The notes below the pieces were generated by a model that saw nothing but the letters and a program-made list of their open reading frames with translations, was not told the origin of the DNA and did not search any database. Made by a program: the position numbers and the translations under genes. Of a DNA stretch of 64,000 nt, positions 41,605 through 61,033 are shown one piece after another. This DNA is from Candidatus Poribacteria bacterium (GTDB taxonomy: Bacteria > Poribacteria > WGA-4E > WGA-3G), in assembly GCA_965220065.1 (NCBI GenBank), contig OZ244804.1:4416915-4480914 (forward strand), in the 5' to 3' direction. Within the stretch, counting starts at the first letter, position 1. The number at the start of each line of letters is the position of its first letter.

Positions 41605-44600
41605 ATGAAATTGAAAAAATATAACCCCTTGCAATCTTTGAGTCGTAAGTATCCGAAACTTGCGAGTTTCACCAAAGTAGCATCTTTCTTCTTCGTTGCT
41701 GTGTATATGGCAATAGTGGTTAACTTTGATGTCTCTGCGGCGATCACCGGAAAAATTTCTGGGGTAATCACCGCTGAAGAAACGGATTCCCCGCTTGCGA
41801 CTGTCACGGTAACACTCGTTGGTACAAGCACTACCGCGACAACGAACAGTGCTGGCTATTATGTTATGACCAACGTCCCACCCGGAAGTTATGATGTAAA
41901 GGTCGAGCTCACGGGTTATGCGGCAGAAACTGTAGCGGCGACAAGCGTGCTCGCCGGTCTTACGACAACGTTGGACTTTACCCTAAAGAGTACGGCTGTG
42001 CAACTTGAAGGTATAACGGTAACGGCTGTTAAGCCGCTAATTAAGAAAGATGTCACGCAGTCGACAAGAATCATTGAATCAGATAATATTGAGGCTATGC
42101 CCCGCGATACCGTGAATGGGATTTTACAAACCCTTCCTGGGGTTGCGGTGCTGAACTCAACCGGTTCAACGCATGTTCGCGGGGGTAGGTCAATGGAGAT
42201 TCGGTATCTCATTGATGGTATCCCGATTAATAATCCGATCAGCAGAAGTTTGGGGTTGAGTATCGGCACGAATTCCCTTGAGCAGATGGAGGTCATCACC
42301 GGTGGATTTAATGCGGAGCACGGTGATGCGCAATCCGGTATTGTGAATCTCATCACGAAGGTTGGAACGAATAAATTTTCTGGTAGAGTCCGATACCGAG
42401 TTGGACAGTGGGGGACGCACCACGGCGATCCGTTGTACGGTCCATGGCTTGATCCAGATAATGGATTTCGACCCGTTGCGATTGAACCCTTCAGAGGTAT
42501 CTTTTTTGGGCAACCCTACGACTATCAAAAGCCGTATCGCGGACGGGATGTCACGGTTGCAGAGTTAGCGGAACGCGAAGGCGACGAACAGGTCGTCTTT
42601 ACGGAGATTTTCCCCGGCGTATATGCCGACAGGACAGAAAACCCGCTCCAGCCCGTGATGGACCCAGAAACGGGTGAACCGCAGGTTAACCCCGATACGG
42701 GTGAACCGATTATGACGCGTCAACCTTATAAGGATGCCGATGGTACTGTTATCGACTATGAGAAGAAACAGGTTACTTTGTTAGACGGCTACGTCGTGGA
42801 TCTCGAACAGTATAAGGGATTGTTCAACGACACGAAAAAGTACGAGCTGTCTCCGAGCCATATCGGTGAATTCGCGCTCAGCGGACCGATATGGGGAAAT
42901 CGGTTGACGTTCGCTGTCTCCAGTCAGCTAAGTCGGAATCACAGTTTTTTTCCGAATAGTGGGGGAACGGGATATATCTTCCAAGGAAAGCTGAAGTTTG
43001 AAGTAACACCGAGTCTCAAACTCACTACAAGTGGGCTTTTCAATAGGTCGGAAGGTTACTCCTATGGGGGTTCGCTGCGCTTTTGGCCCAGTGCCGTTCC
43101 GGAGTCAAATTCAAACGCTCGGAATATGTCCGTGCGACTCTCACATAATATCAACTCTGGTACTTTCTATACGTTGACACTTGGGCAATTTCATCGTTCT
43201 GGTGAGGCACATCAACCCGGAAAGGTGTGGGATCCGTTGGAGAAGACGTTTGATGAAAACGCTTGGGATCCCGATAAATCCTTTGAGCAGAATCAGGAAG
43301 AAGGCAGAATCAGGAACCCACCCCAACAGGCATATAACGATACAACCTATTTAGTCGCCGGGGACAGCAATTCTTGGGGAACCAGCACTGCGACAACCTC
43401 AATCGCAAGAGCGGATTTTTCCAGCCAAGTTACGGCGAACCACCTGATCCAGACAGGCGTTGAGTTCTTGGGATACGATCTCTATAATCTCAGCACGACG
43501 AATTACGGAAGCTCCAACCTTTACATGGAGTACTACGATGTCCAACCGCAATCCTTGAGTATGTATCTCCAAGACAAGATGGAGTATGAAGGCATGATCG
43601 TCAACGCCGGGTTACGATATGACCTGTATAATCCATCTGGTGTTTCACCCCAAGACCCGTTTGATCCGCTCGAATTGAACGACGATGGCACCATCAAACT
43701 CGATAAAAGCACCCATAAAGTCGGACTCCCTATCATCAAAGATCCTGTTCAGGCTTCCACCAAACACATGATCGCCCCACGTCTCGGCATCTCCTTCCCG
43801 GTTACCGACCGATCGAAGTTGCACTTCACGTACGGGCATTACTATCAGATTCCACGAGGTGATGATCTCTACGAAAACCTCAATTTTGACATGCGGGGCG
43901 CAATCCGAAGAAGAGGGAATCCTGACTTAGATCCAGAGCGGACGATCGCTTATGAAGTCGGTATCATACGTCAATTCACCGATGACTTGACGATTGACAT
44001 CACCGGATTCACCAAGGATATTGACAAACTCGTCAATAGCGTACACGTTGACATTACCAACGATTATAGCTACTTCCTCAATAGTGAATTCGAGGGAATG
44101 CTCCACGGCATCTATGGTCGGGTGCAAGGGTTTGAACTCACGATTCGCAAATGGCGCACAGGTGGAAGTCCGGTTTCTGGACTGCTCAGTTATACCTATT
44201 CCGTCGCGAAGGGAAAAGGTTCCAGCCGAAATCTGGGCTATCTCACCTACTACCGGCAACAGCCTGACGTAACCGAAAGCCACCCGTTGGCATGGGATCA
44301 ACGTCACATTTTCTCTGGAATGTTGGACATCCAATTGCCATTTGATTCCTCTGTCAATCTGATTGGCAGGTATGGGAGCGGTTTGCCCTACACGCCGAAT
44401 CCGAGAGCACCCGTCAAACCCGACATCAACTCGAAGCGTTACCCGCCGACCTACAATGTGGATGCCCTTATCAGCAAACGGAGTCGGATTGGTGGGTTGA
44501 CTTATACCTTCTTTGCCGACATTCGGAACATCTTCAATACGAAGAATCTCGACGATATCTTAGATGCGGTGACCTATGACCGATACGGTATCCCGCTCAA

Positions 44601-44676
44601 CAGCCAAAAACATTCGCATCCGCTGTCGTGGAGTTCACCACGGTTGATTATGATGGGCGTGAGTCTGGATTTTTAG
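41605..44676 (+). CDS. TonB-dependent receptor-like outer-membrane beta-barrel with an N-terminal carboxypeptidase-regulatory-like domain.
   Basis: A signal/anchor is followed by a CarbopepD_reg-like segment (GVITAEETDSPLATVTVTLVG...GYYVMTNVPPGSYDV), a plug-like region and a long barrel ending in ...GVSLDF (terminal aromatic). Confidence 0.7.
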   Translation: MKLKKYNPLQSLSRKYPKLASFTKVASFFFVAVYMAIVVNFDVSAAITGKISGVITAEETDSPLATVTVTLVGTSTTATTNSAGYYVMTNVPPGSYDVKVELTGYAAETVAATSVLAGLTTTLDFTLKSTAVQLEGITVTAVKPLIKKDVTQSTRIIESDNIEAMPRDTVNGILQTLPGVAVLNSTGSTHVRGGRSMEIRYLIDGIPINNPISRSLGLSIGTNSLEQMEVITGGFNAEHGDAQSGIVNLITKVGTNKFSGRVRYRVGQWGTHHGDPLYGPWLDPDNGFRPVAIEPFRGIFFGQPYDYQKPYRGRDVTVAELAEREGDEQVVFTEIFPGVYADRTENPLQPVMDPETGEPQVNPDTGEPIMTRQPYKDADGTVIDYEKKQVTLLDGYVVDLEQYKGLFNDTKKYELSPSHIGEFALSGPIWGNRLTFAVSSQLSRNHSFFPNSGGTGYIFQGKLKFEVTPSLKLTTSGLFNRSEGYSYGGSLRFWPSAVPESNSNARNMSVRLSHNINSGTFYTLTLGQFHRSGEAHQPGKVWDPLEKTFDENAWDPDKSFEQNQEEGRIRNPPQQAYNDTTYLVAGDSNSWGTSTATTSIARADFSSQVTANHLIQTGVEFLGYDLYNLSTTNYGSSNLYMEYYDVQPQSLSMYLQDKMEYEGMIVNAGLRYDLYNPSGVSPQDPFDPLELNDDGTIKLDKSTHKVGLPIIKDPVQASTKHMIAPRLGISFPVTDRSKLHFTYGHYYQIPRGDDLYENLNFDMRGAIRRRGNPDLDPERTIAYEVGIIRQFTDDLTIDITGFTKDIDKLVNSVHVDITNDYSYFLNSEFEGMLHGIYGRVQGFELTIRKWRTGGSPVSGLLSYTYSVAKGKGSSRNLGYLTYYRQQPDVTESHPLAWDQRHIFSGMLDIQLPFDSSVNLIGRYGSGLPYTPNPRAPVKPDINSKRYPPTYNVDALISKRSRIGGLTYTFFADIRNIFNTKNLDDILDAVTYDRYGIPLNSQKHSHPLSWSSPRLIMMGVSLDF

Positions 44677-44703
44677 TCGAATAAGATAATATGGAGGCGA
44701 ACA

Positions 44704-44952
44704 ATGCGAATACAAGAAATCGCAGAAGCCATAGAAACGTTAAGTCCCACTGATCGGTCCCACTTACGGAGACTATTAAAAGCGCAGGACGAAGCCGATA
44801 AACTGGAAATATTTCATCAAGTCTTGCTGTCGAAAGGCTTAGTTAAAGAAGTGAAAAAGCCTCCTGTCCCTGACACGATTGAACGGCAACTCATTGAGGT
44901 CAACGGGAAACCTGTCTCACAAACAATTATTGAAGAACGGAATAGGCGATGA
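44704..44952 (+). CDS. Putative type II antitoxin (VapB-like), partner of the downstream PIN toxin.
   Basis: It is an 82-aa protein whose stop overlaps the start of the PIN gene by 4 nt (ATGA). Confidence 0.5.
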   Translation: MRIQEIAEAIETLSPTDRSHLRRLLKAQDEADKLEIFHQVLLSKGLVKEVKKPPVPDTIERQLIEVNGKPVSQTIIEERNRR

Positions 44953-45410
44953 TCTACTATATGGATAGTAGTTGTCTTGTTAAACGTTATGTCAGTGAAG
45001 TTGGTTCAGGATGGGTTCTCAGTATCACTAACCCTGTTGCAGGAAACGAAATTTACACTGTCCGCATTACAAGTGTTGAGATTGTTTCTGCCATCTCGCG
45101 GCGGAAACGGGATGGCACAATTATCTCTGCTGATGCAGCAATGGTAATTGCCACCTTGAAAAATGACTTACTGAACGAGTATCAGATTATTGAAGTGACT
45201 GAGCCGCTGGTTAATCGGGCGATGACCTTAGCTGAAACTTATGGTTTACGCGGCTTTGATGCTGTACAGCTTGCAGCAGCATGTGAAGTTCAAGCACTTT
45301 GCATCGCAAGTGGAATTCCGCCGCTCTCTTTTCTCTCAGCAGATAAGGTGCTCAATGCCGCAGCTACAGCTGAAGGACTGTCAGTGGATGATCCAAATGA
45401 CCACCCTTAA
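44949..45410 (+). CDS. vapC: PIN-domain ribonuclease toxin (VapC-like).
   Basis: It has an N-terminal Asp cluster (MIYYMDSSCLVKRY), conserved acidic residues and a ...GFDAVQLAAA segment in a 153-aa protein. Confidence 0.7.
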   Translation: MIYYMDSSCLVKRYVSEVGSGWVLSITNPVAGNEIYTVRITSVEIVSAISRRKRDGTIISADAAMVIATLKNDLLNEYQIIEVTEPLVNRAMTLAETYGLRGFDAVQLAAACEVQALCIASGIPPLSFLSADKVLNAAATAEGLSVDDPNDHP

Positions 45411-45454
45411 ATACAATAAATGTGGGTTTGGATTTTTAAGAAGGAAAATACTGA

Positions 45455-46240
45455 ATGAAGAAAATCAACATTGCAGAGGCTGATGTGATCACTGTGGCGA
45501 CGCGGCTAAAACAGTTATCACCTAATATCCCCGGATTCGGATCCGTCGATCCTGCATGGACGCGCCCCCCTGCTGTTCTTGTCATTGACTGTGTCCTTTC
45601 GCTCAACAGGAATTACGACACGTTCTTAGTTCCACGTCTGAAAACTTTCATGAGTAACCATCCTGAGACACAGCGGATAACCGACTTGGCTAAGTTGATG
45701 GCGAGTTACCCAACGCCCCATGCGTTCGTGCAACAGGAACTCAATTACAAGCACGAAAGCCGCGCAAGGACACTTCAGGCTGTCGTGGACTTCGTGTGCC
45801 AAATCGTTGAGGGAACACAAACTATTCAGGCAGAAAAAGAGGTTCTTAAACAGTGGGCAATTCTGGCTAAACCGTCGGACTACCAAACGCTAAACATCCG
45901 GGGTTTTGGGATCGCCGGTTTTCAGTACCTTCGAATGCTCTTTGGCGCGGACACTACAAAACCTGATGTACACATTATTGGATTTCTATCTGAGCTCTTG
46001 AACCGGAGGATCTCGGAGGTTGAGGCACTTCGCCTTTTGGAAGCAGCGTCTGAAAGTGTAGGGCTTTCTGTCCGGGACGTTGACACATACGTCTGGCAAA
46101 TTAGGGCGCGTGGAGAGCAAAATGCTGATGAGACAAACGCTGTTCGACTTGATCCAGACATTGCCGCCGCTTTTCCTACTGCAAAAGCCGTTAATGAAGC
46201 TTTGCGATCTGTGTTGAAAGAGAGAGGTAAGAAGAAATAA
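45455..46240 (+). CDS. Hypothetical protein with a divergent helix-hairpin-helix (HhH-GPD-like) segment.
   Basis: The segment LNIRGFGIAGFQYLRMLFGADTTKPDVHIIGFL resembles the HhH-GPD motif of EndoIII/DNA-glycosylase superfamily proteins (LpGVG...vDtHV). I recognise nothing else in the protein. Confidence 0.35.
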   Translation: MKKINIAEADVITVATRLKQLSPNIPGFGSVDPAWTRPPAVLVIDCVLSLNRNYDTFLVPRLKTFMSNHPETQRITDLAKLMASYPTPHAFVQQELNYKHESRARTLQAVVDFVCQIVEGTQTIQAEKEVLKQWAILAKPSDYQTLNIRGFGIAGFQYLRMLFGADTTKPDVHIIGFLSELLNRRISEVEALRLLEAASESVGLSVRDVDTYVWQIRARGEQNADETNAVRLDPDIAAAFPTAKAVNEALRSVLKERGKKK

Positions 46241-46274
46241 CTGTGTCTGTAACGATTGAGGGCATAACAGTCAA

Positions 46275-47105
46275 ATGAAGCATCAGGAAACAATACCGTT
46301 ATCAAATATTTACAATCGAGAAGAAGATTTCTCTACAGATCTTGCTAATAATCTTGATATTCTCAAAGTTGGCAGTTTTGAAGACGTGGAGACGGAATCC
46401 AACGTCGGGACACGCAGAGCAGATATTGTCGCTGTCGGTGAGGATGGCATCCTCGTGGTTGAAAATCAGTTTGGGAAGGCAGATTGGGATCATTGGGGCA
46501 GACTTGAGGCTTACGCCCGATTGAAAAAAGCCAATGTTGCTGTGCTGGTAGCTGAAGACTTTGAGGAAGTAATGATTGTTACTTGCAATCTACGCAATGA
46601 AGACAGCAGAATTGACTGGTATCTCATTCAAGCACAGGCGAATGGACACAAAGAACTTTCATTTCATCACGTTGCTCGACCTGCAATAGATATTCAAACC
46701 GAGAGACAACTGGACACTGAATATGATGAATTCTGGGCACCGATTCGCAGTGGTGAACTCGGAAAAGTGTTTATGGGACCACCTATGTCTGATCACAATA
46801 ACGGCTGGATGGGTAATAAAACTATTCCCGGTGTAGAAGTGTGGCTTAGACTTATTAACCAGAAATGCTATGTTCGATTGTACTTTCTGAAACCTAACCC
46901 CTTTGAACGCCGAGACAAGATCATGGAGTTATTTCCGGGATCGGAATACGATTACGAATACAAGGATACACCCACCCGTACAACGGTGATTTTTCCTGTC
47001 ATTAACAAAGGCAAAAACGACCGCGATGATTGGGATGAAATTCGCGAGAAATTAGTTGCCACGGGCACCGATATCTACAATAAAATCAACGAATCTAACC
47101 TATAG
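46275..47105 (+). CDS. Paralog A: NucS/PD-(D/E)xK-like N-terminal domain fused to a conserved ~140-aa C-terminal domain of unknown function.
   Basis: The N-terminal RRADIVAVGEDGILVVENQFGKAD resembles the GEIDLLA..G.LVVIElK core of NucS/RecB-like nucleases, but the canonical Lys is not in place. The C-terminal blocks HHVARPAIDIQTE, EFWAPIRSG, ERRDKIMELFP, VIFPVINKGKNDRDDWDEIRE and GTDIYNKINESNL are shared with the downstream paralog. Confidence 0.5.
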   Translation: MKHQETIPLSNIYNREEDFSTDLANNLDILKVGSFEDVETESNVGTRRADIVAVGEDGILVVENQFGKADWDHWGRLEAYARLKKANVAVLVAEDFEEVMIVTCNLRNEDSRIDWYLIQAQANGHKELSFHHVARPAIDIQTERQLDTEYDEFWAPIRSGELGKVFMGPPMSDHNNGWMGNKTIPGVEVWLRLINQKCYVRLYFLKPNPFERRDKIMELFPGSEYDYEYKDTPTRTTVIFPVINKGKNDRDDWDEIREKLVATGTDIYNKINESNL

Positions 47106-47230
47106 CCACTAAAGTTTGAATGATTCGTATTGCGTGCATATTGAGTTTTCAAGGCGTTCTCTATTTTTCTGTGAGTTTTGCACAAAGCGGTAACTCATAA
47201 ACAAAAAGATTTCAAGCAGAGAGAAGCGCA

Positions 47231-47257
47231 GCCCCAGCGGGGCGGCATCTGTATAAC
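47231..47257. repeat. Second copy of the GCCCCnnnGGGGCGGCATCTGTATAAC repeat.
   Basis: It matches 16650-16679 and lies about 25 nt upstream of the paralog-B start. Confidence 0.55.
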
Positions 47258-47281
47258 GTAAAACACTAAAAGGAAATCGAA

Positions 47282-48250
47282 ATGCTAAATGTAGGCGAAC
47301 AACTTGTATCTTCATACCTACGATACATCCGGGGTTGTGATTTTATCCAAACGAATTTGTACACGATCGAATCCCAAGGCGAAATTGACGTTGTCGGATT
47401 GAACATGGTGGAACAACAAGTCTACATTTGTGAGGTAGCCATTCACCTAACAACTGGACTCCAGTACGTCAAAAACAAGAGACCCAACAATGTGCAGAAA
47501 CTTACCGATAAGTTCTCCAGAGACATTGAATACGCACAAAAATACTTTGATAAACACAATCAACATTTTATGCTTTGGAGCCCGATAGTTAAAGACACAA
47601 AAGGAAAGCCTGAATACAATCAAATGCGGCATCTCGCAGAAATTAAAGCAAATATCAAAAGGCAGTATGACGTTGATATTGAATGCATAGTTAACGAAAA
47701 GTTTTACGCCTGTTTAGAAGAGTTAAGACTTCATGCAGCGGCCCAAACTGTCGCACTCCAATGTCCCTTGATGCGTTTAATGCAAATAGAGGAACTTTTG
47801 GGTAAACATGTATCAAATCATCACGCCACGCGACCGGCAATGAATATCCAAACTCAGAAGAAAACCGAGCGGGAATACAGTGAATTCTGGGCCCCGATTC
47901 GCTCTGGAGACAGTTTATTTGCGGGAAAGCCTGTCCCTATCCGAGACGAAGGTTGGGTACGTAAGAATATCCGCAATATCGGTGTGACACTCTTTCTTAA
48001 CAACCAACAATGCTATATTTTGTTGTACTTTGAAGGAGAAAATCCCTTAGAGCGTAGGGACCGGATCATGACGCTATTTCCAAAATCAGATTATATTTGG
48101 GAATGTAAGGATTCACCTAAGGAGACAAAAGTTATATTCCCAGTCCTTGACAAAGGTAAGAAGAATCGAGACGATTGGGATGAGATTCGAGAAACATTAG
48201 TCAACATGGGCACCGACATTTACAGTAAAATCAACGAGTCTGACTTATAG
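47282..48250 (+). CDS. Paralog B: NucS/PD-(D/E)xK-like N-terminal domain plus the same conserved C-terminal domain as paralog A.
   Basis: The N-terminal core is GEIDVVGLNMVEQQVYICEVAIH. The C-terminal blocks are HHATRPAMNIQTQ, EFWAPIRSG, ERRDRIMTLFP, VIFPVLDKGKKNRDDWDEIRE and GTDIYSKINESDL. Confidence 0.5.
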   Translation: MLNVGEQLVSSYLRYIRGCDFIQTNLYTIESQGEIDVVGLNMVEQQVYICEVAIHLTTGLQYVKNKRPNNVQKLTDKFSRDIEYAQKYFDKHNQHFMLWSPIVKDTKGKPEYNQMRHLAEIKANIKRQYDVDIECIVNEKFYACLEELRLHAAAQTVALQCPLMRLMQIEELLGKHVSNHHATRPAMNIQTQKKTEREYSEFWAPIRSGDSLFAGKPVPIRDEGWVRKNIRNIGVTLFLNNQQCYILLYFEGENPLERRDRIMTLFPKSDYIWECKDSPKETKVIFPVLDKGKKNRDDWDEIRETLVNMGTDIYSKINESDL

Positions 48251-48260
48251 TACACGACTT

Positions 48261-48749
48261 ATGGATTATACCATTATAGAAGCCGGTATTGACGATGTCG
48301 AAGCCATCGTGGATGTGACATTCCAAAGTTTTGAGGACGCGTTCAACAAACTGTTCTACATGGAACGTGAAGTCGCTGTCCACAGATGGAAAGCGTATAT
48401 GCGAAAGGAGCATCATCCGCGAGACGCAAAAGACCCTCGGATTGTTTACATCGCAATCGCCGATGGAAAGATAGTAGGTTTCGTTGCGGGACATCTGACA
48501 AAACGGCTCGGATTGGAAGGTGAACTCCAATCTATCTATGTTCTCCCGAAGTTCCAGGGACAGGGACTCGGAACGCAATTAGTCATTGTCCTTGCGAAGT
48601 GGTTCAAAAAGTGGGATGCGAAAGAGGTCTGTGTCGATCACAAGAACGGTAGTGAGGGTTTTTACATCAAACTGGGGGCGAGGTTCAACGATCACGGATG
48701 GTTGGTATGGGACAATTTTTTTGATGTCCTTGCGTATGAGAAAGCATAA
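48261..48749 (+). CDS. GNAT-family N-acetyltransferase.
   Basis: It has the acetyl-CoA binding region ...IYVLPKFQGQGLGTQLV... in a 162-aa protein. Confidence 0.7.
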   Translation: MDYTIIEAGIDDVEAIVDVTFQSFEDAFNKLFYMEREVAVHRWKAYMRKEHHPRDAKDPRIVYIAIADGKIVGFVAGHLTKRLGLEGELQSIYVLPKFQGQGLGTQLVIVLAKWFKKWDAKEVCVDHKNGSEGFYIKLGARFNDHGWLVWDNFFDVLAYEKA

Positions 48750-48788
48750 GGGACGACTACGAAATGATATCTGTTAAAGAGGTTATGT

Positions 48789-49418
48789 ATGCCGTTTGTT
48801 GCTGAATTGTATTTTGATCCCGCAACCGAGGAGTGCATTCGCGATGCGTGGAAAGCCATTGATGAAGCAGGAATTAGTGATTCTATGCCCAAAGGTGGTT
48901 ATCGCCCACATATATCGCTTGGGATTTGCGAGCATCTTGAACTCGAGGCGTTTGCGAAGGAACTTTCAACCTTTGCGGCGGGTATTACGCCGTTTCGATT
49001 GTCGTTCCCCAATATAGGTATTTTTTCTACATCGGAAGGGGTCGTTTACTTGGGCGCAACGGCAACCAAGCAATTGCTGAATCTACACACGAAATTTCAT
49101 GAAATCTTCAAGAAATACGCAAAGGAGCAACGCGAATATTACACTGTTGGACAGTGGGTGCCGCACTGCACACTCGCTTTTGGTTTGTCAGAGGACCAGA
49201 TCGCTGAAGCAGTAAACGTTTGTCGGCAGATTGATTTACCCGTTTCCACGGAAATCAAGGAGATTGGAGTGATGGAGGTTTCTCCTACGGATTGTCGCAC
49301 GCTATCTTCGTTTAGTCTCAAAACGAGTGATAGCATTGAACTGGATGACGAATTACGCCCCGAATACGACGAAACACTGCTAAAAAACGGCATTCAGGGG
49401 AAATACGCGAAACAGTAA
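48789..49418 (+). CDS. 2H phosphoesterase superfamily protein (LigT / 2'-5' RNA ligase-like).
   Basis: It has two H-x-S/T-x motifs (PHISLG and PHCTLA) with the spacing typical of the 2H fold. Confidence 0.6.
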   Translation: MPFVAELYFDPATEECIRDAWKAIDEAGISDSMPKGGYRPHISLGICEHLELEAFAKELSTFAAGITPFRLSFPNIGIFSTSEGVVYLGATATKQLLNLHTKFHEIFKKYAKEQREYYTVGQWVPHCTLAFGLSEDQIAEAVNVCRQIDLPVSTEIKEIGVMEVSPTDCRTLSSFSLKTSDSIELDDELRPEYDETLLKNGIQGKYAKQ

Positions 49419-49443
49419 ATGATCAATAAGGGAAAAATTTACC

Positions 49444-49839
49444 ATGAGAATATATGAATTCACACTCATTTTAACAGTCGACCCAAATGAAGAAGAAACC
49501 GATCGGCTCTACAGTATCTTTGACGATGGGACAATTGCCACGATTGGCGGGGTGCCGCGGATTCATTTTCACCGTGAGGCATTTTCGTTGGAGTCCGCAG
49601 TTGTTTCGGCACTCTTGGATATTCAAAAGGCAGGTTTTGATGCTGACCATGTGCATATTAAACCGAAGGTTGTCCTTGGCACAGTAGGCAGTATAGATTT
49701 ACGCGAGCGCGGTATTGACGAAGCACAGGCGGCAGAAATGCGGGCACGTCTCGCTTCCTTTGCCGAAGATTGGGAAAGTCCCGAGATGGATGCCTATGAC
49801 AACTATGACGAGGAAAAAGCCAAGTTACAAACGCGGTGA
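49444..49839 (+). CDS. Hypothetical acidic-tailed protein, a candidate antitoxin for the downstream MazF/PemK-like toxin.
   Basis: It is a 131-aa protein with a C-terminal acidic stretch DWESPEMDAYDNYDEEKAK. Its 3' end overlaps the toxin gene start region. Confidence 0.4.
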   Translation: MRIYEFTLILTVDPNEEETDRLYSIFDDGTIATIGGVPRIHFHREAFSLESAVVSALLDIQKAGFDADHVHIKPKVVLGTVGSIDLRERGIDEAQAAEMRARLASFAEDWESPEMDAYDNYDEEKAKLQTR

Positions 49840-50164
49840 TGTCATTCTATCACGTTTTCCGGATTCCAATTTGCATACAGCCAAACTACGTCCGGGATTA
49901 ATCGTTCAAGCGGACAATCTTCAAACCAATTTGCCGCAACTGATTGTAGCGATGATTACCAGCAAGATGTTCCGTGCTAATCACCTGAGCCGTGTTACCA
50001 TTTTAGTTTCCACACCGGAGGGGCAACAATCTGGATTAATCATGGACTCGGTAGTGATGACTGATAATCTTGCCACAGTTGTTGAAGCAACCATTGAACG
50101 GGTTGTTGGCTCGATTCCAATGAAAAAAATTAACATAGCTTTGCGGCATACCTTGAATCTATAA
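49805..50164 (+). CDS. MazF/PemK-family endoribonuclease toxin.
   Basis: The region ...KRGDVILSRFPDSN....RPGLIVQADNLQ...LIVAMITSK...IMDSVVMTDNLATV follows the PemK/MazF pattern. The start was chosen at the internal ATG at 49805 to give the usual ~119 aa. The ORF-track start at 49715 is the alternative. Confidence 0.6.
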   Translation: MTRKKPSYKRGDVILSRFPDSNLHTAKLRPGLIVQADNLQTNLPQLIVAMITSKMFRANHLSRVTILVSTPEGQQSGLIMDSVVMTDNLATVVEATIERVVGSIPMKKINIALRHTLNL

Positions 50165-50170
50165 CCGTTG

Positions 50171-51976
50171 ATGGATATTGACGGAGCACGCTTAAACAGC
50201 GAATTTACACTCGTAAAAATCGTCCTACTCTGTATTCTGATTGCCTCAGCGGTTTTAGTGCTGCGGAATCTCGGACATAGTGGGATTACGTATTGGGACG
50301 AAGGGTTTCACGCCGTCGTTGCACGGAATTTGACGAAACATCCGCTCAAATTCACGCTCTACGATCAACCGTGGCTCCCTTATGACTACAAAGGTTGGGG
50401 TGAGAACCATATCTGGCTCCATAAACCGCCTGTCGCCATGTGGACGATCTGGCTCTCGCACCTTCTTTTCGGTATCAATACGTTCGCGCTCCGGTTGCCA
50501 TCTGCAATCAGTTTGGTTGTGACGACGTGGTTGACATTCCGAATTGCTGCGGATCTCTTTGACAAACGGGCAGGACTCATTGCGGCATTCCTCCAGGCGT
50601 TTAACCCGTTTCTCTTTGAGTCCGTTCACGGCTATCGTTATTCGGATCACATCGACATCGCTTTGTTGCTCTGGGTACAGGTTTCGTGTTGGTTCCTGCT
50701 CCGTGCGATTCGGACAGGCAAACGGCGAAATTACATCTTATCCGGCGTTGCAATGGGTGTTGCGTATCTGTCGAAAAGCTACCTCGCACTCATCACTTTT
50801 GGCATCGCGCTTGTCGTTTGGTGTGTTAAGTGGGCCAGGCAAATCTATCGCGAGAGATGTGTCTCGGATAATAGCGCGCAAAACGAGGTGCAAGAAGCAA
50901 AAATTCGTCTCAGGGACATCGGTTTACAACTCTTAGCCGCACTTGCGACGGTGGCACCGTGGGTCATCTATTGCCTGATTTACTATCGCAAGGAATTCCT
51001 TTGGGAACATAAACGCGTGTTGGATCACCTCAACACCGATGTCGAGAGTTGGGGAGCAAGTTGGGACCGACCGTTGTTTGATTACATGCCGCTGTTTTAT
51101 CCGGTGTTCTATGCCGCACTCATTGCGGCGGTGTTGTGTCTGATAGTCGTCCTGTTCAAACGGTGGCAGTTAGCAGAACTTTTCGTGTTAGCGTGGGGTA
51201 TCGGCGTGATTGTCCCGCATACACTCGCAGAGACGAAAACGCCATCGGCGACGATGATTGCCGTGCCACCGCTACTGATGTGTCTCGCCGCGGTCATCAG
51301 CCGAGCATGGCAACGACGGGATTGGGTTTACACCTCTATTTGGATGGCGGGAATGCTTGCGGTGACTATCATCTCTGGTGGACGTACGCTCGTCCAGAGT
51401 CGTGACCAGTTTGATGGACTCAAAAAGATCGCACCCTTTATCCAAACGAATTTCTGGATTGTTGAGCAACTGATCGGATTTGGCGTACTATTGGCAATTT
51501 TCGCGGGTGTGTACATGCTGGTTCGCCACCGCAATGTGCAAAGATGGATATGGTTTGGTCTCCGAACCGTGGCACTGATAATTGCGTTATTCTATGCAGG
51601 ACGCTATGTGCATGCCGCTTACAGCGTCACAGAACGGAATAGTCAAGTCCCTCTATATGAAACGAGTGGACCACGTCTCCAACGTGAAATGCCAGAGAAC
51701 GCCTGTTTCTTTCTTGACGATGAGCGTGTTGGGGCACATTTCGATTTGATGTATTACGCAGATCGGTCAACGTATCAGATTTACAATAAGCACATGAAGA
51801 AGCCTCGCGATTTCAAGAGCCAAGCCAAGATAGCTCGTGAAGCCGGTGCAATTCCCTATCTTTTCTCTGTCAAAGAGACAGTCTACAATTATCCGCTGTT
51901 CATTGAAGATGAAGTGGACATCGGGAATGGAAAAATGCAACAGTATCGGGTTTTTGAAATTACGGAAACCCGATGA
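50171..51976 (+). CDS. GT-C fold glycosyltransferase (ArnT / PMT-like, GT39/83-type) integral membrane protein.
   Basis: It has about 12+ transmembrane helices. A DEG motif with an acidic first loop (YWDEGFHAV) sits near the N-terminus, as in ArnT/PMT lipid-linked sugar transferases. Length is about 600 aa. Confidence 0.65.
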   Translation: MDIDGARLNSEFTLVKIVLLCILIASAVLVLRNLGHSGITYWDEGFHAVVARNLTKHPLKFTLYDQPWLPYDYKGWGENHIWLHKPPVAMWTIWLSHLLFGINTFALRLPSAISLVVTTWLTFRIAADLFDKRAGLIAAFLQAFNPFLFESVHGYRYSDHIDIALLLWVQVSCWFLLRAIRTGKRRNYILSGVAMGVAYLSKSYLALITFGIALVVWCVKWARQIYRERCVSDNSAQNEVQEAKIRLRDIGLQLLAALATVAPWVIYCLIYYRKEFLWEHKRVLDHLNTDVESWGASWDRPLFDYMPLFYPVFYAALIAAVLCLIVVLFKRWQLAELFVLAWGIGVIVPHTLAETKTPSATMIAVPPLLMCLAAVISRAWQRRDWVYTSIWMAGMLAVTIISGGRTLVQSRDQFDGLKKIAPFIQTNFWIVEQLIGFGVLLAIFAGVYMLVRHRNVQRWIWFGLRTVALIIALFYAGRYVHAAYSVTERNSQVPLYETSGPRLQREMPENACFFLDDERVGAHFDLMYYADRSTYQIYNKHMKKPRDFKSQAKIAREAGAIPYLFSVKETVYNYPLFIEDEVDIGNGKMQQYRVFEITETR

Positions 51977-52077
51977 ACATTTTTGATATTTACTGGAATC
52001 ATTTCTTGCCTATATTTTCCAGCAAGAACGCTTTGTTATTGCAACATTCAATAAATATATGAGGTGAAACGTAACCT

Positions 52078-55053
52078 ATGAAATTATTACGATATATTTA
52101 TCTATCCACAATTTTAGCACTCGTAGCACTACCCACAAGTGCACAAGTGGATTGGAAAGCACTCGATGTGGGTAACCTATCGTCTGCTATCTATAACACC
52201 GCGGTTGTCGGGTTTCCGAGTAACCCTACCGCGAACCCATCGGGATGGTGGCCCGCGGGCACAAACGATTCCTATATCTTCGAGGGAGATATCTGGATCG
52301 GTGCCAAAAAGAACGGTGAGGTCGGTGTGTCTGCCTCAGATGGCAGGCACAGCGAAATTTGGCCCACCGACGACGCGCCAGAGGTTATCTCAGACAAACC
52401 CGGTGTAACGACGAAGGGAACCCCCACCAACCAAGCACTCATGTTCAAATGCTCGGACACAAATCCCGAAGCAAATAAAGATTTGATCCTCGGTTTAGAA
52501 CTCGTAGTCAACGGCTTCCAATGGAGTTACGCACCCCTCTACGACTTCTTTATTCTCGAGTATAACGTCAAGAATGTCGGTAGCGACACGCTTGAAGACG
52601 TATTTATGGCGTTCCGATACGACGTGGACATCTCCAGTAACGAGACGGGGACAGCGAGTTACTCCGCTGATGACTTTGTTGCCTTGGATCAAACACCGGA
52701 TGCGCTCAATCCAGTGGATCACCCAAACCGTTACCTCTCTTACGGATTCTCCAACGCCTCCGCACCCGGGTATATCGGCTTGCGGGTATTAGATGCGTAT
52801 ATCGGGGAAAACGCGGACGACCCTGCGGCAAAAATTCCTTTCACAGCACACAAACGGATTACGATCACCACCGACCCAACCACGGATGCGGAGATGTACG
52901 CCCTCATCAGCACCCCCGGTGTTGAACCGCTCCCCGCAAACTACGATGATCAACGTTTTATCCAATCCTATGGACCTGTTGAATCCTTTGCTCCCGGTGA
53001 GTCATTCAACGTCATTATCGCTGTGGCAATCGGTGAGGGACTTGCGGGTTTGCAAGCGTCGTCCGACTGGGCACAGAAGTTATATGACGATGGCTACGTC
53101 GCACCGGCACCGCCGCCATCCCCGTTGGTAACGGCTTATCCTGCTGATAAACAGGTGACACTCGTCTGGGAGAGCGAGGGACGCTGGGTTGACGCTGGGG
53201 AGAGCAAGCGCATTGAGGAATACATTGATGTGACCGACCCAGAAAAAATCTTTGAAGGCTATCGGGTTTATAGACGCGATGTCTCTTATGATGAATCCAC
53301 TGGCGATCCGGTCGAGGATTGGACGATGCTCATGGAGTTCGACAAGCCGAGTGCAACGGGTAATTTCTTTACGGTCTCGCATGTCGGTAAGCAGTCGGAT
53401 GCCACCATCGAAAGCGAGGGGGATGAACCCTTCTTCGCCGATTTCTTCAAAAACGCTGTCTACGTCATCAAATTTAACTCCAGCACAGAGTTTGAAGTGG
53501 TTAACACGACGCTATGGGAAGTTATGGCGTATAACCCCGCCTTTCCAGCAAACGGCGGCGGATACGTCATCATCAAAGATCCGAATACAGGTGAACCGTA
53601 TCCGGACGGTGCCTATCGTTCCGGTGCTCGAATCTATTTTGGTGGACTCTACGTGCAAATTGCCGATGGACCTTCAGGACCGCCTGTCGCTGGCGACATC
53701 TTCCAAGTCGTCTCGACCCCTTCGCAAGCACTCGGTGAGGACGCAGGTATCAAGAATTTCTACACCGATGAAGGCTTAACCAACGGACTTGAATACACCT
53801 ATGCGGTGACCTCGTATGATACAGGCAACCCGAAAACGGGGCTGATCGCGATGGAGAGCAGCCAGATCGAGACGATGGTACACGTTGTGCCACGCGCCCA
53901 ACCCGCAGGATACCGCGGACCTACTGCTGATATAGAACAGCAGGGACAAGGAATCGTTACCGTTGAACCGATGGTGCTCGCACCGAACAAGGTAACGGGG
54001 CATCAATACAAAATGGTCTGGTACGGTGCAAAGCAAATAGGTCCCGCCGCATACATCACAGGTCCCGGATATCAGCCACCCGCTTATGAGATCGTCGATA
54101 TGACGACCGACCAGACTGTTGTTGAGCTACAATCCTTTGATTGGTATGACCCGGAGCATCAAGAGGCTATTGAAGTTCTTTCACCGATGTTTGATGGCGT
54201 AGTTCTGAGGATAACAGGTGTTAATGTATCCTACGGCACGCCCATGGAAAATCCGATTAACGACGTTAAACTGACAGCAGGCACAGTCACAGATTGGTCG
54301 GTAGATATCCAATCCCCCGGGTTTGGTGAGAATACATGGCCCAACGTCTGGTGGTCGACGTATTATCGTCCACATACCTACTCGATCACATTTGTTGATG
54401 ATACCCACGTCAAAGTGGTCGATGAAGATACGGGTGAGGAAATTCAATTCAGTGACCAGCGTGCCGCTGGATACGCGATCCTGACAGCCACAGGCTGGCG
54501 TGATACATATAATCCTGCAGAGACCCCAGGGTTCTTCCGTATTTACATCCGAGGCGGCTACGTCTTTATAAAGGATCCGAATGGCGAAGTCTCTGCCGGA
54601 GATGTCTTCACTGTTGAAATGGGTGGGGTCAGCGCACCACAGGACGGGGATCAGTTTCTTCTCAATACAAAAGGGGAGAGCCTCTCACCTGAAGACATTG
54701 AAGCCGATCTTGGAAAAATTCGGGTCGTTCCCAATCCTTATTTCGTCACAAATAGAGCGGTACTTTCCGAAGGAACAGACAAAATTTTCTTCACACATCT
54801 CCCACCGCGGTGTACAATACGGATTTATACGTTAGCCGGTGAATTGGTCCGAACCCTTGAACACGAGAGCACTGCCCTTTTCAATCCTGGTGAACGGACA
54901 CAGGGCGACAAGGGCGGGACAGAGACATTTGAACTCCTCAATCGCTACAATCAAGCACTCGCAAGTGGTGTTTATATCTATCATGTTGAAGCCAGAGACG
55001 AAAGTGATGAAGTCGTCGGTAACAAAATCGGCAGATTTGCAATCATTCGGTAA
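52078..55053 (+). CDS. Large secreted protein with a T9SS C-terminal sorting domain.
   Basis: A signal peptide (MKLLRYIYLSTILALVALPTSAQ) precedes a ~990-aa body with no motif I can name. The C-terminus IRVVPNPYFV...IYTLAGELVRTLEH...ASGVYIYHVEA...KIGRFAIIR matches the Por-secretion C-terminal-domain pattern. Confidence 0.6.
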   Translation: MKLLRYIYLSTILALVALPTSAQVDWKALDVGNLSSAIYNTAVVGFPSNPTANPSGWWPAGTNDSYIFEGDIWIGAKKNGEVGVSASDGRHSEIWPTDDAPEVISDKPGVTTKGTPTNQALMFKCSDTNPEANKDLILGLELVVNGFQWSYAPLYDFFILEYNVKNVGSDTLEDVFMAFRYDVDISSNETGTASYSADDFVALDQTPDALNPVDHPNRYLSYGFSNASAPGYIGLRVLDAYIGENADDPAAKIPFTAHKRITITTDPTTDAEMYALISTPGVEPLPANYDDQRFIQSYGPVESFAPGESFNVIIAVAIGEGLAGLQASSDWAQKLYDDGYVAPAPPPSPLVTAYPADKQVTLVWESEGRWVDAGESKRIEEYIDVTDPEKIFEGYRVYRRDVSYDESTGDPVEDWTMLMEFDKPSATGNFFTVSHVGKQSDATIESEGDEPFFADFFKNAVYVIKFNSSTEFEVVNTTLWEVMAYNPAFPANGGGYVIIKDPNTGEPYPDGAYRSGARIYFGGLYVQIADGPSGPPVAGDIFQVVSTPSQALGEDAGIKNFYTDEGLTNGLEYTYAVTSYDTGNPKTGLIAMESSQIETMVHVVPRAQPAGYRGPTADIEQQGQGIVTVEPMVLAPNKVTGHQYKMVWYGAKQIGPAAYITGPGYQPPAYEIVDMTTDQTVVELQSFDWYDPEHQEAIEVLSPMFDGVVLRITGVNVSYGTPMENPINDVKLTAGTVTDWSVDIQSPGFGENTWPNVWWSTYYRPHTYSITFVDDTHVKVVDEDTGEEIQFSDQRAAGYAILTATGWRDTYNPAETPGFFRIYIRGGYVFIKDPNGEVSAGDVFTVEMGGVSAPQDGDQFLLNTKGESLSPEDIEADLGKIRVVPNPYFVTNRAVLSEGTDKIFFTHLPPRCTIRIYTLAGELVRTLEHESTALFNPGERTQGDKGGTETFELLNRYNQALASGVYIYHVEARDESDEVVGNKIGRFAIIR

Positions 55054-55065
55054 CAGGAGAAATGC

Positions 55066-56130
55066 ATGCAACGTATAATTTATATGCTATTATTCATATT
55101 TCTTTTACTCTGGGATGTTCCCAGTCATGCCACAACCAATGTTGGCACGGCGGGTGCCCAGTTTCTGAAAATCGGTCCCGGTGCACGGGTAGACAGTCTT
55201 GGAGGGGCGTTTGGCGCGCTCGCCGACGACGTAACCAGTATCTACTGGAACCCAGCAGGGATAAGCCAACTCGAAAAAACCAGTTTTTCGGACACACATA
55301 CCGTCTGGCTTGCCGATGTCCGTTATAACTATCTGGCGTTCGCTACACCGATAAAAAACATCGGCACTGTGGGCGCGAGCGTCACATTCCTCAATGTCCC
55401 GGATACGGAGATTACCACACTGGCAAAACCCGATGGGACGGGTCTCTGGTATTCTGCTTATGATACCGCTGTCTCGTTGGCGTATGCCCGTCAACTTTAC
55501 GAACAGGAATCCGGCGTTAAATTATCTGTCGGTATTAATGCCAAATACATCCACCAGCAGATCCATAGAGAAAGTGCCAGAGGCGTTGCTATTGATGTCG
55601 GCACCCTGTACCATACCGGCTGGCGCAGTCTACGAATCGGGATGTGTTTCTCGAACTTTGGACCGGAAATGCGCTTCGGCGGTCCTGATTTAGAGAGTGG
55701 GGCAGAAGTTGCAGGAGACCCACGGATAGGGAGTTACCGCCCGTTTCCAGACACAACGAATCCGGCACGGAAAGCAGAATTAGAGACGATTGAGTTCCCG
55801 CTACCCTCCAATTTCCGACTCGGACTCGCCTATGACATTATTGATTCTGGTAGCAATCTCCTCACGCTTGCCCTTGACGCCAACCATCCCAACGATAATA
55901 GTGAACGGTTGAACATCGGCATGGAGTACTGGTACAGAAAAATGGCAGCAATTCGGGGCGGTTACAAATTCCGATTAGGAGAAGACCGCACCGACGATGA
56001 AGAGGGGCTTACACTCGGTTTAGGCATCCACCTGAACCTTGGCAGAAGGGTCCTTTCTCTCGATTATGCCTATGCTGATTTCGGACGCCTACAACAGGTA
56101 CACCGAGTGAGTTTGGGATTACAGTTCTAA
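55066..56130 (+). CDS. PorV/PorQ-family outer-membrane beta-barrel protein (T9SS-associated, FadL-like).
   Basis: After a signal peptide, GTAGAQFLKIGPGARVDSLGGAFGALADDVTSIYWNPAGIS is a strong match to the conserved N-terminal signature of PorV/PorQ-like proteins. The gene sits immediately downstream of the T9SS cargo gene (12-nt gap, AGGAG Shine-Dalgarno). Confidence 0.6.
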   Translation: MQRIIYMLLFIFLLLWDVPSHATTNVGTAGAQFLKIGPGARVDSLGGAFGALADDVTSIYWNPAGISQLEKTSFSDTHTVWLADVRYNYLAFATPIKNIGTVGASVTFLNVPDTEITTLAKPDGTGLWYSAYDTAVSLAYARQLYEQESGVKLSVGINAKYIHQQIHRESARGVAIDVGTLYHTGWRSLRIGMCFSNFGPEMRFGGPDLESGAEVAGDPRIGSYRPFPDTTNPARKAELETIEFPLPSNFRLGLAYDIIDSGSNLLTLALDANHPNDNSERLNIGMEYWYRKMAAIRGGYKFRLGEDRTDDEEGLTLGLGIHLNLGRRVLSLDYAYADFGRLQQVHRVSLGLQF

Positions 56131-56141
56131 GGACACCAAAT

Positions 56142-57545
56142 ATGACAGACAAACCAAACATCGTTTATCTTCTGGCGGATCAAATTCGTGCGTGCTCGTT
56201 GCCGGTATATGGCGATACACAGATCGAAACGCCGCACATTGATCGACTCGCACAGGAGGGCACGGTCTTTTCAAATGCAATCGCTACCGCGCCCGTCTGC
56301 ACCCCTTACCGTTCTATGATGCTCACGGGACGGCATCCACAGACGACTGGACATCTCATTAATTTCGTCAGAACCCGACACGACGAAATCGGACTCGGTG
56401 ACGTTTTCAACAGAAACGGCTATCGGACGGCATGGGTCGGCAAATGGCATCTCCACACCGGTTCGTTCCCGGAAATCGGTGGTCGAGACTATGTTCCCGA
56501 AGGGCGTGACCGTCTCGGATTCCAACACTGGCGCGGCTATAACTTCCACACCGACTATTTCAACGGCACAGTAAACCTTGACGACTGGCGGAACGAAACG
56601 TGGGAAGGTTACGAAACCGATGCGTTAAACCGATACGCCTTCCAGTTTATGGATGACATGGACGATGATACCCCATTCTGTCTATTTATCTCTCCACACC
56701 AAGCGCACTCCACGCCTTATGAATTTGCACCATCGGAATACTACGACCGGCTCCCTAATGAACTCCAACTACCAGAAAATGTTCCAGATTCGCTCAAAGA
56801 ACAATCGTTAGAAATTTACCGACACTATCTCGCAATGACACTAACAGTGGACGATATGCTCGGTGAACTGATGGCGTATCTCGAAAGGACGGGACGTGTC
56901 GAAAACACGTTGCTCGTTTTCGGATCCGACCACGGAACGCAGGGCGGCGGACAAGGCATCAATTTCTGGGCGAAGCGCGAACCTTACGAAGAATCCATCA
57001 AGGTGCCACTGATTATGCGTCTGCCCGGCGTTTTCGATGGAAATCGCACCTGTGACACGCTCACCTCCCCCGTTGATCTGTTCCCATCGCTTTGCGGTTT
57101 ATGTGGCATCCAACCACCCCGCACCGTTGAAGGTTATGACCTTTCTGCCTCTTGGCGCGGTAATGCTGATGCATTTGAACAGGATGCCGTCTTAACGATG
57201 AACTTCGGATCGACCTACGATTACCTCATTGATGGTAACGAGTGGCGTGGCGTGCGTACAAAAACGCATAGTTACGCACGTTGGCTCGGTGGCAAACGGA
57301 TGTTATACGATGTGGAAGCAGACCCGCTGCAGATGAAGAATCTGATTGACGCATCCGAAGCAGAGTCGTTAGCGGGCGAAATGGAGAACACCCTCACAAA
57401 TTTGATGGATGCCCGGAACGATAGACTCCAACCCGCGACCGGTTATACAGATTGGTATGATGCGCAACGTCGTATTGTGCGTAACGCCCACGGTCCCCTC
57501 GGTGATCCCGAAGATGAACCCGATTGGTCGCTCTTAAAGAGTTAG
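56142..57545 (+). CDS. Sulfatase (formylglycine-dependent arylsulfatase family).
   Basis: It has the C-x-P-x-R signature (APVCTPYRSMMLTGR), the N-terminal LLADQ metal-binding region and the downstream GKWHLH motif. Length is 467 aa. Confidence 0.85.
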   Translation: MTDKPNIVYLLADQIRACSLPVYGDTQIETPHIDRLAQEGTVFSNAIATAPVCTPYRSMMLTGRHPQTTGHLINFVRTRHDEIGLGDVFNRNGYRTAWVGKWHLHTGSFPEIGGRDYVPEGRDRLGFQHWRGYNFHTDYFNGTVNLDDWRNETWEGYETDALNRYAFQFMDDMDDDTPFCLFISPHQAHSTPYEFAPSEYYDRLPNELQLPENVPDSLKEQSLEIYRHYLAMTLTVDDMLGELMAYLERTGRVENTLLVFGSDHGTQGGGQGINFWAKREPYEESIKVPLIMRLPGVFDGNRTCDTLTSPVDLFPSLCGLCGIQPPRTVEGYDLSASWRGNADAFEQDAVLTMNFGSTYDYLIDGNEWRGVRTKTHSYARWLGGKRMLYDVEADPLQMKNLIDASEAESLAGEMENTLTNLMDARNDRLQPATGYTDWYDAQRRIVRNAHGPLGDPEDEPDWSLLKS

Positions 57546-60900: not shown

Positions 60901-61033
60901 ATTCTTTGACGATGTTTTAGTGATGGCGGAGGAGCCGGCACTACGCGCCAACAGATTGGCTTTATTGAACCAGATCGGACGGAATATCTACGCCGTCGCG
61001 GACCTGACGAAACTTGTAATTGCTGGGAATTAA
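57944..61033 (+). CDS. glyQS: Fused glycine--tRNA ligase alpha+beta subunits (GlyQ-GlyS fusion).
   Basis: The N-terminal ~290 aa are GlyQ ([22 protein letters not shown]...GAGTFNP...). The remainder is GlyS with its HD-like and anticodon-binding regions. The real start is likely the ATG at 57965 (MTLQEII...). Length is 1029 aa. Confidence 0.85.

Follow-up and report, generated by a model that had tools for sequence, protein, structure and literature searches.

In Porphyromonas gingivalis, PorU and PorZ are held at the cell surface by PorV and PorQ while their C-terminal domains (CTDs) remain uncleaved, and the CTD of PorZ was described as 'neither type A nor B' (PMC5562754, PMC10947112). In both pairs a large surface protein is bound via its C-terminal beta-sandwich to a barrel of 14 strands. 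CTD proteins of type B are anchored at the surface in association with PorP-like barrels (PMC9143113), as described for F. johnsoniae and P. gingivalis. A further arrangement is known from the SusC/SusD loci of Bacteroidota, in which the gene of a receptor built from CarboxypepD_reg, Plug and barrel domains is followed by the gene of a non-catalytic surface protein, with secreted or surface enzymes encoded alongside; such loci are strongly diversified and occur in multiple copies. For Poribacteria, Kamke et al. 2014 reported tails of the TIGR04183 type on many WD40 and other eukaryote-like proteins. The same study detected no Por-system structural genes in poribacterial single-cell genomes and left the export route open, and a paper of 2024 described type IX secretion system (T9SS) genes as absent outside the Fibrobacterota-Chlorobiota-Bacteroidota (FCB) phyla. 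Here we analysed a stretch of 64,000 nucleotides from a Candidatus Poribacteria bacterium (contig OZ244804.1, positions 4,416,915 to 4,480,914), which is referred to as the window. In the window the gene of a 991-residue secreted protein, here called BIG, lies directly upstream of a gene for a barrel of the PorV/PorQ family. We found that both genes belong, together with an upstream gene for a TonB-dependent receptor, to a three-gene cassette that is conserved across phyla. The components themselves are of known kinds; the conserved cassette, its dedicated class of tails and its breadth across uncultivated phyla appear undescribed, and no description of the cassette was found in the open-access literature.

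BIG, an all-beta protein, is encoded at 52078..55053 and the 354-residue barrel at 55066..56130, both on the plus strand. The stop codon of BIG (TAA, 55051-55053) is followed by a single C, an AGGAG Shine-Dalgarno site (55055..55059, +), six bases and the ATG of the barrel gene at 55066, so that the spacer comprises 12 nt. An earlier note on this DNA, made from the letters alone, had placed both open reading frames (ORFs) at these positions and had pointed to the 12-nt gap with its AGGAG site, and all of this is present. The BIG gene has the sequence GAGGTG 11 nt 5' of its ATG. Among the 41 gene starts of the window 21 are preceded by a Shine-Dalgarno core (a 5-mer at -20 to -4), compared with 4.8% of random positions. 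This agrees with the note, which had seen clear Shine-Dalgarno use and had suggested a lineage outside the Bacteroidota. The host is indeed a member of Candidatus Poribacteria, a phylum of sponge symbionts, and close homologues of BIG and of the barrel were found exclusively in Candidatus Poribacteria. The tight spacing is not peculiar to the pair, as a sulfatase gene starts only 11 nt after the stop codon of the barrel gene. Just 5' of BIG there are a hairpin (51944-51975, stem of 13 bp) and a site that resembles a promoter (51989-52016). Promoter- and terminator-like sites occurred at chance frequency overall in our scan, and these two are a weak hint only.

The order of the two genes is strongly conserved within the phylum. 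In 80 Poribacteria loci from species representatives (79-98% barrel identity) BIG lies directly upstream of the barrel gene in 79, and the remaining locus is cut by a contig end. The flanking genes vary: a PMT_2 gene is found upstream of BIG in 52 of the 80 loci and a sulfatase gene in 57. An initial homologue search gave only relatives of at least 79% identity, and it was an exhaustive search of representative sequences that uncovered a large unannotated superfamily. It comprises 3241 representative clusters (50% identity) at E<=1e-3, of which 1281 are found at <=1e-10, and its members typically have 900-1300 residues and 30-39% identity. The named relatives belong to Fermentibacteria, Eisenbacteria, Marinimicrobia, WOR-3, Edwardsbacteria, Calditrichota and pelagic Poribacteria. 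They are annotated as 'hypothetical', save one 'Fibronectin type-III domain-containing protein' in UniRef. Besides, metagenome-assembled genomes of pelagic 'Candidatus Poribacteria' (cluster P0124) carry a shorter relative of 690 residues with 43% identity, seemingly without the N-terminal domain.

For three distant relatives of BIG we found the same gene order, namely a TonB-dependent receptor of about 1000 residues, the BIG family member and a PorV-like barrel. Comparison of the window with the cassettes from Fermentibacteria, Marinimicrobia and a metagenome showed mutual orthology for each of the three proteins. A metagenome scan with the BIG family alignment yielded 50 more loci, which were scored by hidden Markov models (HMMs) from four cassettes. 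Our distant set comprised 34 non-redundant loci from outside the Poribacteria with a strong match to the BIG family, and a locus counted as testable if it offered enough sequence. The barrel gene lies downstream in 29 of 30 testable loci and the receptor gene upstream in 27 of 27, with gaps mostly below 200 nt, although the identity of these cassettes to the window is only 22-29%. The cassette is contiguous, in order and on one strand in the Poribacteria loci L059 and L072 and in 27-29 distant loci. One metagenomic contig carries tandem cassettes in the order receptor, BIG, barrel, receptor, BIG (L109:3430-14395). Proteins of the P0335 type (L087, L137) and the locus L135 were left out of the cassette statistics; they match part of BIG only and have neither barrel nor receptor.

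In one locus on a second contig of the same sample (L082, 4715-7692) the barrel is identical to that of the window and the BIG gene is split into ORFs of 136 and 856 residues. Downstream, this locus has a type I restriction-modification system, an AAA_15 ATPase and an IS3-type transposase instead. Variation between strains or an artefact of the assembly accounts for these differences.

The receptor of the window (1023 residues; 41605..44676, +) shows CarboxypepD_reg and Plug domains and a 22-strand-type barrel in the Pfam and NCBIfam scans. It is separated from BIG by 7.4 kb (44677..52077, +) with genes for an antitoxin and a PemK toxin, a GNAT acetyltransferase, a LigT-like ligase and a PMT_2 glycosyltransferase of the GT-C type (50168..51976, +). 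This interval also holds three ORFs without a Pfam match (261, 276 and 322 residues), of which the 322-residue ORF has diverged copies in many loci. In 55 other Poribacteria loci an orthologue of the receptor (73-95% identity) is encoded upstream on the same strand. The gap between receptor and BIG is variable in this phylum, with 233 nt in L072, 801 nt in L059 and up to 6307 nt elsewhere, which marks the site as an insertion hotspot. Because of its gene content, and because the receptor orthologue is found upstream at 233 nt to more than 6 kb in other loci, the 7.4-kb interval is a lineage-specific insertion that splits an ancestral three-gene cassette. The earlier note missed the receptor because the insertion separates it from the pair in this genome. 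It had raised a dedicated pairing of a cargo with its shuttle as a possibility. The pairing is real, since the barrel keeps its upstream tailed protein across phyla, but the conserved unit consists of three genes and includes the receptor.

The barrel had been assigned to the PorV/PorQ family by the signature GTAGAQFLKIGPGAR...IYWNPAG at its N-terminus. This signature is present and is conserved in all distant orthologues. Moreover, the barrel matches the family model NF033709 over its full length (230.9 bits, cutoff 90, profile positions 1-326 of 326), and the distant cassette barrels are members of this family, too (128-174 bits). In contrast to the family model, the equivalog models all failed: the window barrel reached 88.2 of 250 bits for PorV (NF033710), 104.9 of 220 for PorQ (NF033711) and 91.6 of 325 for PorV2 (NF052325). 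PorQ is the best equivalog match for the window barrel and for two of three other cassette barrels tested. With the Pfam PorV model a score of 26.0 was obtained (cutoff 27). The barrel is a member of the PorV/PorQ superfamily, yet it is not PorV, PorQ or PorV2 proper. Its profile found 2156 proteins at E<=1e-10, Tara Oceans sequences among them, and the orthologues from Poribacteria and Marinimicrobia already bear the name 'PorV/PorQ family protein' at NCBI.

Similar results were obtained with the predicted structure. The AlphaFold model of the barrel (mean predicted local distance difference test, pLDDT, 78.8) has 14 strands and an N-terminal plug. In Foldseek its closest solved structures are those of F. 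johnsoniae PorV in the SprA translocon (8GL6_F, E 1.2e-14; 6H3I_F, 2e-12), with template modelling (TM) scores of 0.65-0.67. According to its listing, entry 8GL6 is a T9SS complex with RemA-CTD substrate bound and with PorV as a component, and 6H3I_F was also the sole sequence relative of the barrel in the PDB (E 3.8e-5). The runners-up were FadL (about 5e-8, TM about 0.5) and BamG (TM 0.40-0.46). Nevertheless, the barrel differs from F. johnsoniae PorV in its low identity (18%) and its failure on the PorV equivalog, and no SprA is known in this genome. We also considered that the barrel is a generic FadL protein, an outcome that the note had named as speaking against its assignment. This identity was rejected, as Toluene_X/FadL (PF03349) reached only 17.6 (cutoff 29.7) over residues 50-88, the match to NF033709 was far above its cutoff and PorV outranked FadL in Foldseek.

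BIG ends in a seven-strand beta-sandwich (about residues 880-991; 54715..55050, +) with the motifs VVPNPY...CTIRIYT..GELV...ASGVYIYHV...GRFAIIR. In the model the seven strands span residues 882-990, and VVPNPY, ASGVYIY and GRFAIIR correspond to the PNP, GxY and basic terminal strand of CTD-type tails. The earlier note had read this tail as a Por-secretion sorting domain. The CTD-like sandwich stands, whereas the profile assignment does not. Full-length BIG gave no match to TIGR04183 or PF18962 at E<=0.01, and the tail alone remained below both cutoffs (TIGR04183 18.9, cutoff 23; PF18962, Por_Secre_tail, 12.4, cutoff 27). The curated matches of BIG are confined to the last 110 residues or so and are sub-threshold, with the CTDs of PorZ (E 6.5e-6) and PorU (6.2e-5) as the best ones. 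The full models of PorZ (NF052228, 22.2 of 260) and PorU (NF033707, 15.4 of 420) aligned with the last 100 residues or so only, and there was no match to the propeller or to the C25 domain. A PDB sequence search with BIG alone found nothing; the family profile alone reached the CTDs of PorZ (5M11) and PorU (6ZA2).

The window also encodes, outside the cassette, a protein with a WD40 propeller, a reprolysin-type metzincin (motif HELGHAFGLEH), a dockerin and a canonical type A CTD (7111..9684, -). The dockerin is of type I (Dockerin_1, 37.3 bits) and lies between the protease and the tail. This tail passed TIGR04183 with 24.9 for the whole protein and 28.1 for the tail alone (cutoff 23), and it matched FlgD_ig with 40.5 (cutoff 27). 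Canonical CTD cargo therefore exists in this genome, as shown by the WD40-metzincin. The note had taken the two tails to be of the same type. They are related (E 4e-6), but one is canonical and the other belongs to a separate subclass. We built a cassette-tail HMM from non-Poribacteria tails and a canonical-tail HMM from neighbouring cargo, with the Poribacteria tails held out. The BIG tail scored 97.6 bits on the cassette-tail HMM and 24.3 on the canonical one, and the held-out Poribacteria tails behaved alike (84-98 versus 22-27). The opposite was observed for the WD40-metzincin tail (21.4 versus 83.2). The tail of BIG is CTD-like and forms a cassette-specific subclass of its own, apart from the canonical tails. 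A label as 'PorZ-like' was dropped as a specific claim, as the PorZ CTD is no nearer to the cassette class (23) than to the canonical one (33).

No Pfam family was matched by BIG. Its AlphaFold model (pLDDT 73.5, predicted TM score 0.65, from an alignment of 52 sequences) is all-beta and multi-domain. The protein starts with a predicted Sec-type signal peptide, MKLLRYIYLSTILALVALPTSAQ (about residues 1-23; 52078..52146, +), in which residues 2-16 are helical in the model and the cleavage site is a likely one. The conserved N-terminal region that follows spans about residues 24-340 (52147..53097, +). Foldseek matched BIG with probability 1.0 over 280-376 columns to the non-catalytic N-terminal supersandwich of the glycoside hydrolase families GH116, GH65 and GH94, and a run of long strands in the model suggests that this match lies in the N-terminal region. 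An invariant acidic cluster (D127, D182, D184, D198, D199, D291, with R293) lies in the N-terminal region, as does the most conserved motif of the family, [GA][YF][FR][MY]D[NV]D[VI][GS]. Behind a proline-rich linker (APAPPPSP) an array of fibronectin type III (FN3)/immunoglobulin (Ig)-like beta-sandwiches is predicted at about residues 350-875 (53123..54702, +) from the secondary structure of the model and from Foldseek matches to multi-FN3 ectodomains and further FN3/Ig chains. Neither the predicted model nor Foldseek gave a catalytic domain in BIG. The top Foldseek match of the whole model was PorZ (5M11, TM about 0.1); the aligned residues were not part of the output, and the match probably stems from the CTD that both proteins have. 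Both BIG and the WD40-metzincin have a glutamine just past the likely signal-peptidase site (TSA|Q, 52078-52150, and AVA|Q, 9600-9684, -). This is reminiscent of the 'Q-rule' for secreted proteins of Bacteroidota.

The genes around the cassette differ between lineages. The sulfatase of the window (467 residues; 56142..57545, +; Pfam Sulfatase, 173 bits) is an accessory gene specific to Poribacteria and is absent beside the distant cassettes, where CTD-tagged peptidases and other cargo are found instead. Among 73 non-cassette ORFs that flank distant cassettes, 24 carry FlgD_ig and 18 Por_Secre_tail. Three downstream families with canonical tails recur, and they include M6 and S8 peptidases, BNR proteins and DUF6055 proteins. 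TMEM260-like and TPR genes follow the barrel gene directly in three distant loci (L094:11013-13271, L101:6914-9142 and L114:10813-13035). The recurrence of GT-C mannosyltransferase-like genes, namely PMT_2 and TMEM260-like ones, hints at glycosylation of a cassette component. No match to a SusD family was found among the cassette neighbours.

We favour a reading, held with about even confidence, in which the tail and the barrel form an anchor that keeps the non-catalytic beta-sandwich protein BIG at the outer membrane beside the receptor, as a capture module resembling SusC/SusD. BIG would be exported via its Sec signal peptide, and the cognate 14-strand barrel would recognise and hold its cassette-specific relative of the CTD, probably in an uncleaved form. 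Precedents for such holding are PorQ with PorZ, PorV with PorU and the PorP-like barrels with type B CTD proteins. The N-terminal supersandwich and the FN3-like array would thereby be displayed at the outer membrane beside the receptor, and BIG could capture or present a substrate for TonB-powered import, a role like that of SusD or of surface glycan-binding lipoproteins for SusC. As for the substrate, the sulfatase gene beside the cassette points to sulfated glycans in Poribacteria. The CTD-tagged M6 and S8 peptidases encoded beside it in the FCB candidate phyla point to proteins or peptides. The tandem cassettes of L109 and the 3241 clusters look like a diversification in the style of polysaccharide utilization loci and not like a single housekeeping component.

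Compared with the known systems, the cassette combines features that are otherwise found apart. As in PorQ-PorZ and PorV-PorU, a tailed protein is paired with a PorV/PorQ-type barrel, the best curated matches of the BIG tail are the CTDs of PorZ and PorU, and the best equivalog of the barrel is PorQ. Unlike these pairs, BIG has neither the propellers of PorZ nor the C25 peptidase domain of PorU, the equivalog cutoffs failed, and the genes are adjacent, linked to a receptor, found in tandem copies and equipped with a tail class of their own. As far as is known, each type B CTD cargo has its own barrel, which is encoded by the adjacent gene. The cassette resembles these systems in that a CTD protein goes with an outer-membrane barrel, but its barrel is of the PorV/PorQ and not of the PorP/SprF kind, its tail belongs to another class and the known type B pairs lack a receptor. 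The likeness to SusC/SusD loci is one of architecture and gene order and is analogous only. The cassette has no SusD-like lipoprotein, BIG carries a CTD-type tail and has an anchor barrel of its own, and the receptor matched the SusC/RagA model TIGR04056 with 47 of 368 and in its N-terminal part only.

Several observations weigh against our reading. The analysis shows the family memberships, the folds, the separate tail class and the three-gene synteny across phyla, while the binding of tail and barrel, the surface location, the cooperation with the receptor and the substrate are inferred from synteny and fold. Confidence in the BIG model is moderate (pLDDT 73.5), and the Foldseek output did not give the residues that match the N-terminal domains of glycoside hydrolases. 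By sequence, the receptor of the window is only a partial match (28-31%) to the receptors of other cassettes, and its membership in the cassette therefore rests on synteny. The resemblance of the tail to PorZ is unspecific, as the tail HMMs demonstrated. Finally, BIG would have to cross the outer membrane in Poribacteria, in which T9SS structural genes are reported to be missing.

An alternative along the lines of the earlier note is that BIG is ordinary T9SS cargo and that the barrel is a general PorV, which shuttles CTD proteins from an SprA-type translocon to the attachment complex. The family membership of the barrel, its structural nearness to PorV, the canonical type A CTD proteins of this genome and the canonical CTD cargo genes that adjoin the cassette in FCB candidate phyla are in line with this. 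We consider it unlikely, however, because the barrel scores 88 of 250 on the PorV equivalog and is always tied to one protein family and a receptor, and because the BIG tail stays below the TIGR04183 cutoff and is unlike the canonical tails encoded in the same loci. A single general shuttle also fits badly with the contigs that carry more than one cassette and with the canonical CTD cargo genes alongside in FCB candidate phyla. Moreover, profile scans (Pfam and NCBIfam) of the window proteins found no T9SS core gene in the 64 kb, and none was reported in the single-cell genomes of Poribacteria (Kamke et al. 2014). The T9SS-like export route that the note suggested for this lineage is therefore conjectural. 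If the pair were instead the equivalent of PorZ and PorQ, an attachment-complex module of a divergent T9SS outside the Bacteroidota, this would explain why the PorZ CTD is the best curated match of the tail, why PorZ 5M11 is the top Foldseek match and why PorQ leads among the equivalogs. It would also fit that PorQ specifically recruits the PorZ CTD, which stays uncleaved and is 'neither type A nor B'. Yet the PorZ score of 22 out of 260 comes from the tail only, the model lacks beta-propellers and aligns with 5M11 at a TM score of about 0.1, and the cassette tail class shows no specific closeness to the PorZ CTD. An obligatory receptor, tandem copies and thousands of diverged clusters are also unlike a single-copy machine part, which makes this explanation highly doubtful.

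A more far-reaching possibility is that the cassette is a self-contained device for export and display, in which the TonB-dependent barrel exports BIG and the PorV-like barrel anchors it. A requirement for a TonB-dependent transporter in protein secretion is documented for Oar of Myxococcus xanthus, which is needed for the secretion of PopC (PMC6434023). In favour of such a device, the cassette is kept in Poribacteria, in which T9SS structural genes were not found, the adjacency of receptor and BIG is invariant in the 27 testable distant loci, and the device would account for the presence of CTD-type proteins despite a lack of T9SS core genes in the phylum. Presumably Oar also shares the CarboxypepD_reg-Plug-barrel build of the cassette receptor. 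But neither a CTD-type tail nor a PorV-like barrel is involved in the Oar system, which is the single precedent, and a multi-domain protein of about 100 kDa does not go well with a 22-strand barrel that is plugged. Since most carriers are FCB candidate phyla in which a T9SS is possibly present and canonical CTD cargo adjoins the cassette, no new exporter is needed there, and we judge this explanation quite unlikely. In its narrower form, in which the Poribacteria cassette is a self-sufficient, T9SS-independent route whose TonB-dependent barrel, alone or with the PorV-like barrel, exports and displays BIG, it appears very unlikely to us. Such a route would possibly extend to canonical CTD proteins such as the WD40-metzincins. 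If true, it would answer the question raised by Kamke et al. 2014, that is, how CTD proteins are exported in the absence of Por structural genes. The least probable explanation, which we regard as extremely unlikely, takes the barrel for a channel of the FadL type that serves hydrophobic compounds and attaches no functional meaning to its position next to the BIG gene. PorV-family barrels are FadL homologues, weak Toluene_X and UPF0164 matches of the barrel were seen in the Pfam scan, and PorV/PorQ-family annotations are also found in spirochaetes, which are not known to have a T9SS. Against this, Toluene_X stayed well below its cutoff and PorV is ahead of FadL by six to seven orders of magnitude in the Foldseek E-value. 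The conservation of the adjacency across phyla at 22-29% identity largely refutes a meaningless neighbourhood.

Some further genes of the window are mentioned for completeness. A 410-residue protein with a Pfam TLC (ATP/ADP translocase) domain is encoded at 26944-28176 (-) and is a possible nucleotide-exchange transporter in this sponge symbiont. GlyQ and GlyS, the alpha and beta parts of glycyl-tRNA synthetase, are fused in one ORF of 1029 residues (57944-61033, +). Two PhyH paralogues (phytanoyl-CoA dioxygenase-like) lie a few kb apart at 28203-29030 (-) and 32613-33425 (+), and a third is located just past the end of the window.

Our preferred reading is that of an anchored capture module beside a TonB-dependent receptor. 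If it is true, PorV/PorQ-type barrels and CTD-type tails would be a general means of docking large proteins at the outer membrane beyond the T9SS of Bacteroidota, and here this docking would be wired to TonB-dependent transport. The carriers are uncultivated and ecologically important bacteria, among them sponge-dwelling Poribacteria, deep-ocean Marinimicrobia, and Fermentibacteria, WOR-3 and Calditrichota from sediments and digesters. The cassette could be a functional counterpart of SusC/SusD outside the Bacteroidota and potentially a major means of nutrient capture in Marinimicrobia and related phyla. For Poribacteria, it offers a tangible starting point for understanding the CTD-tagged proteins of this phylum, which are so far unexplained.

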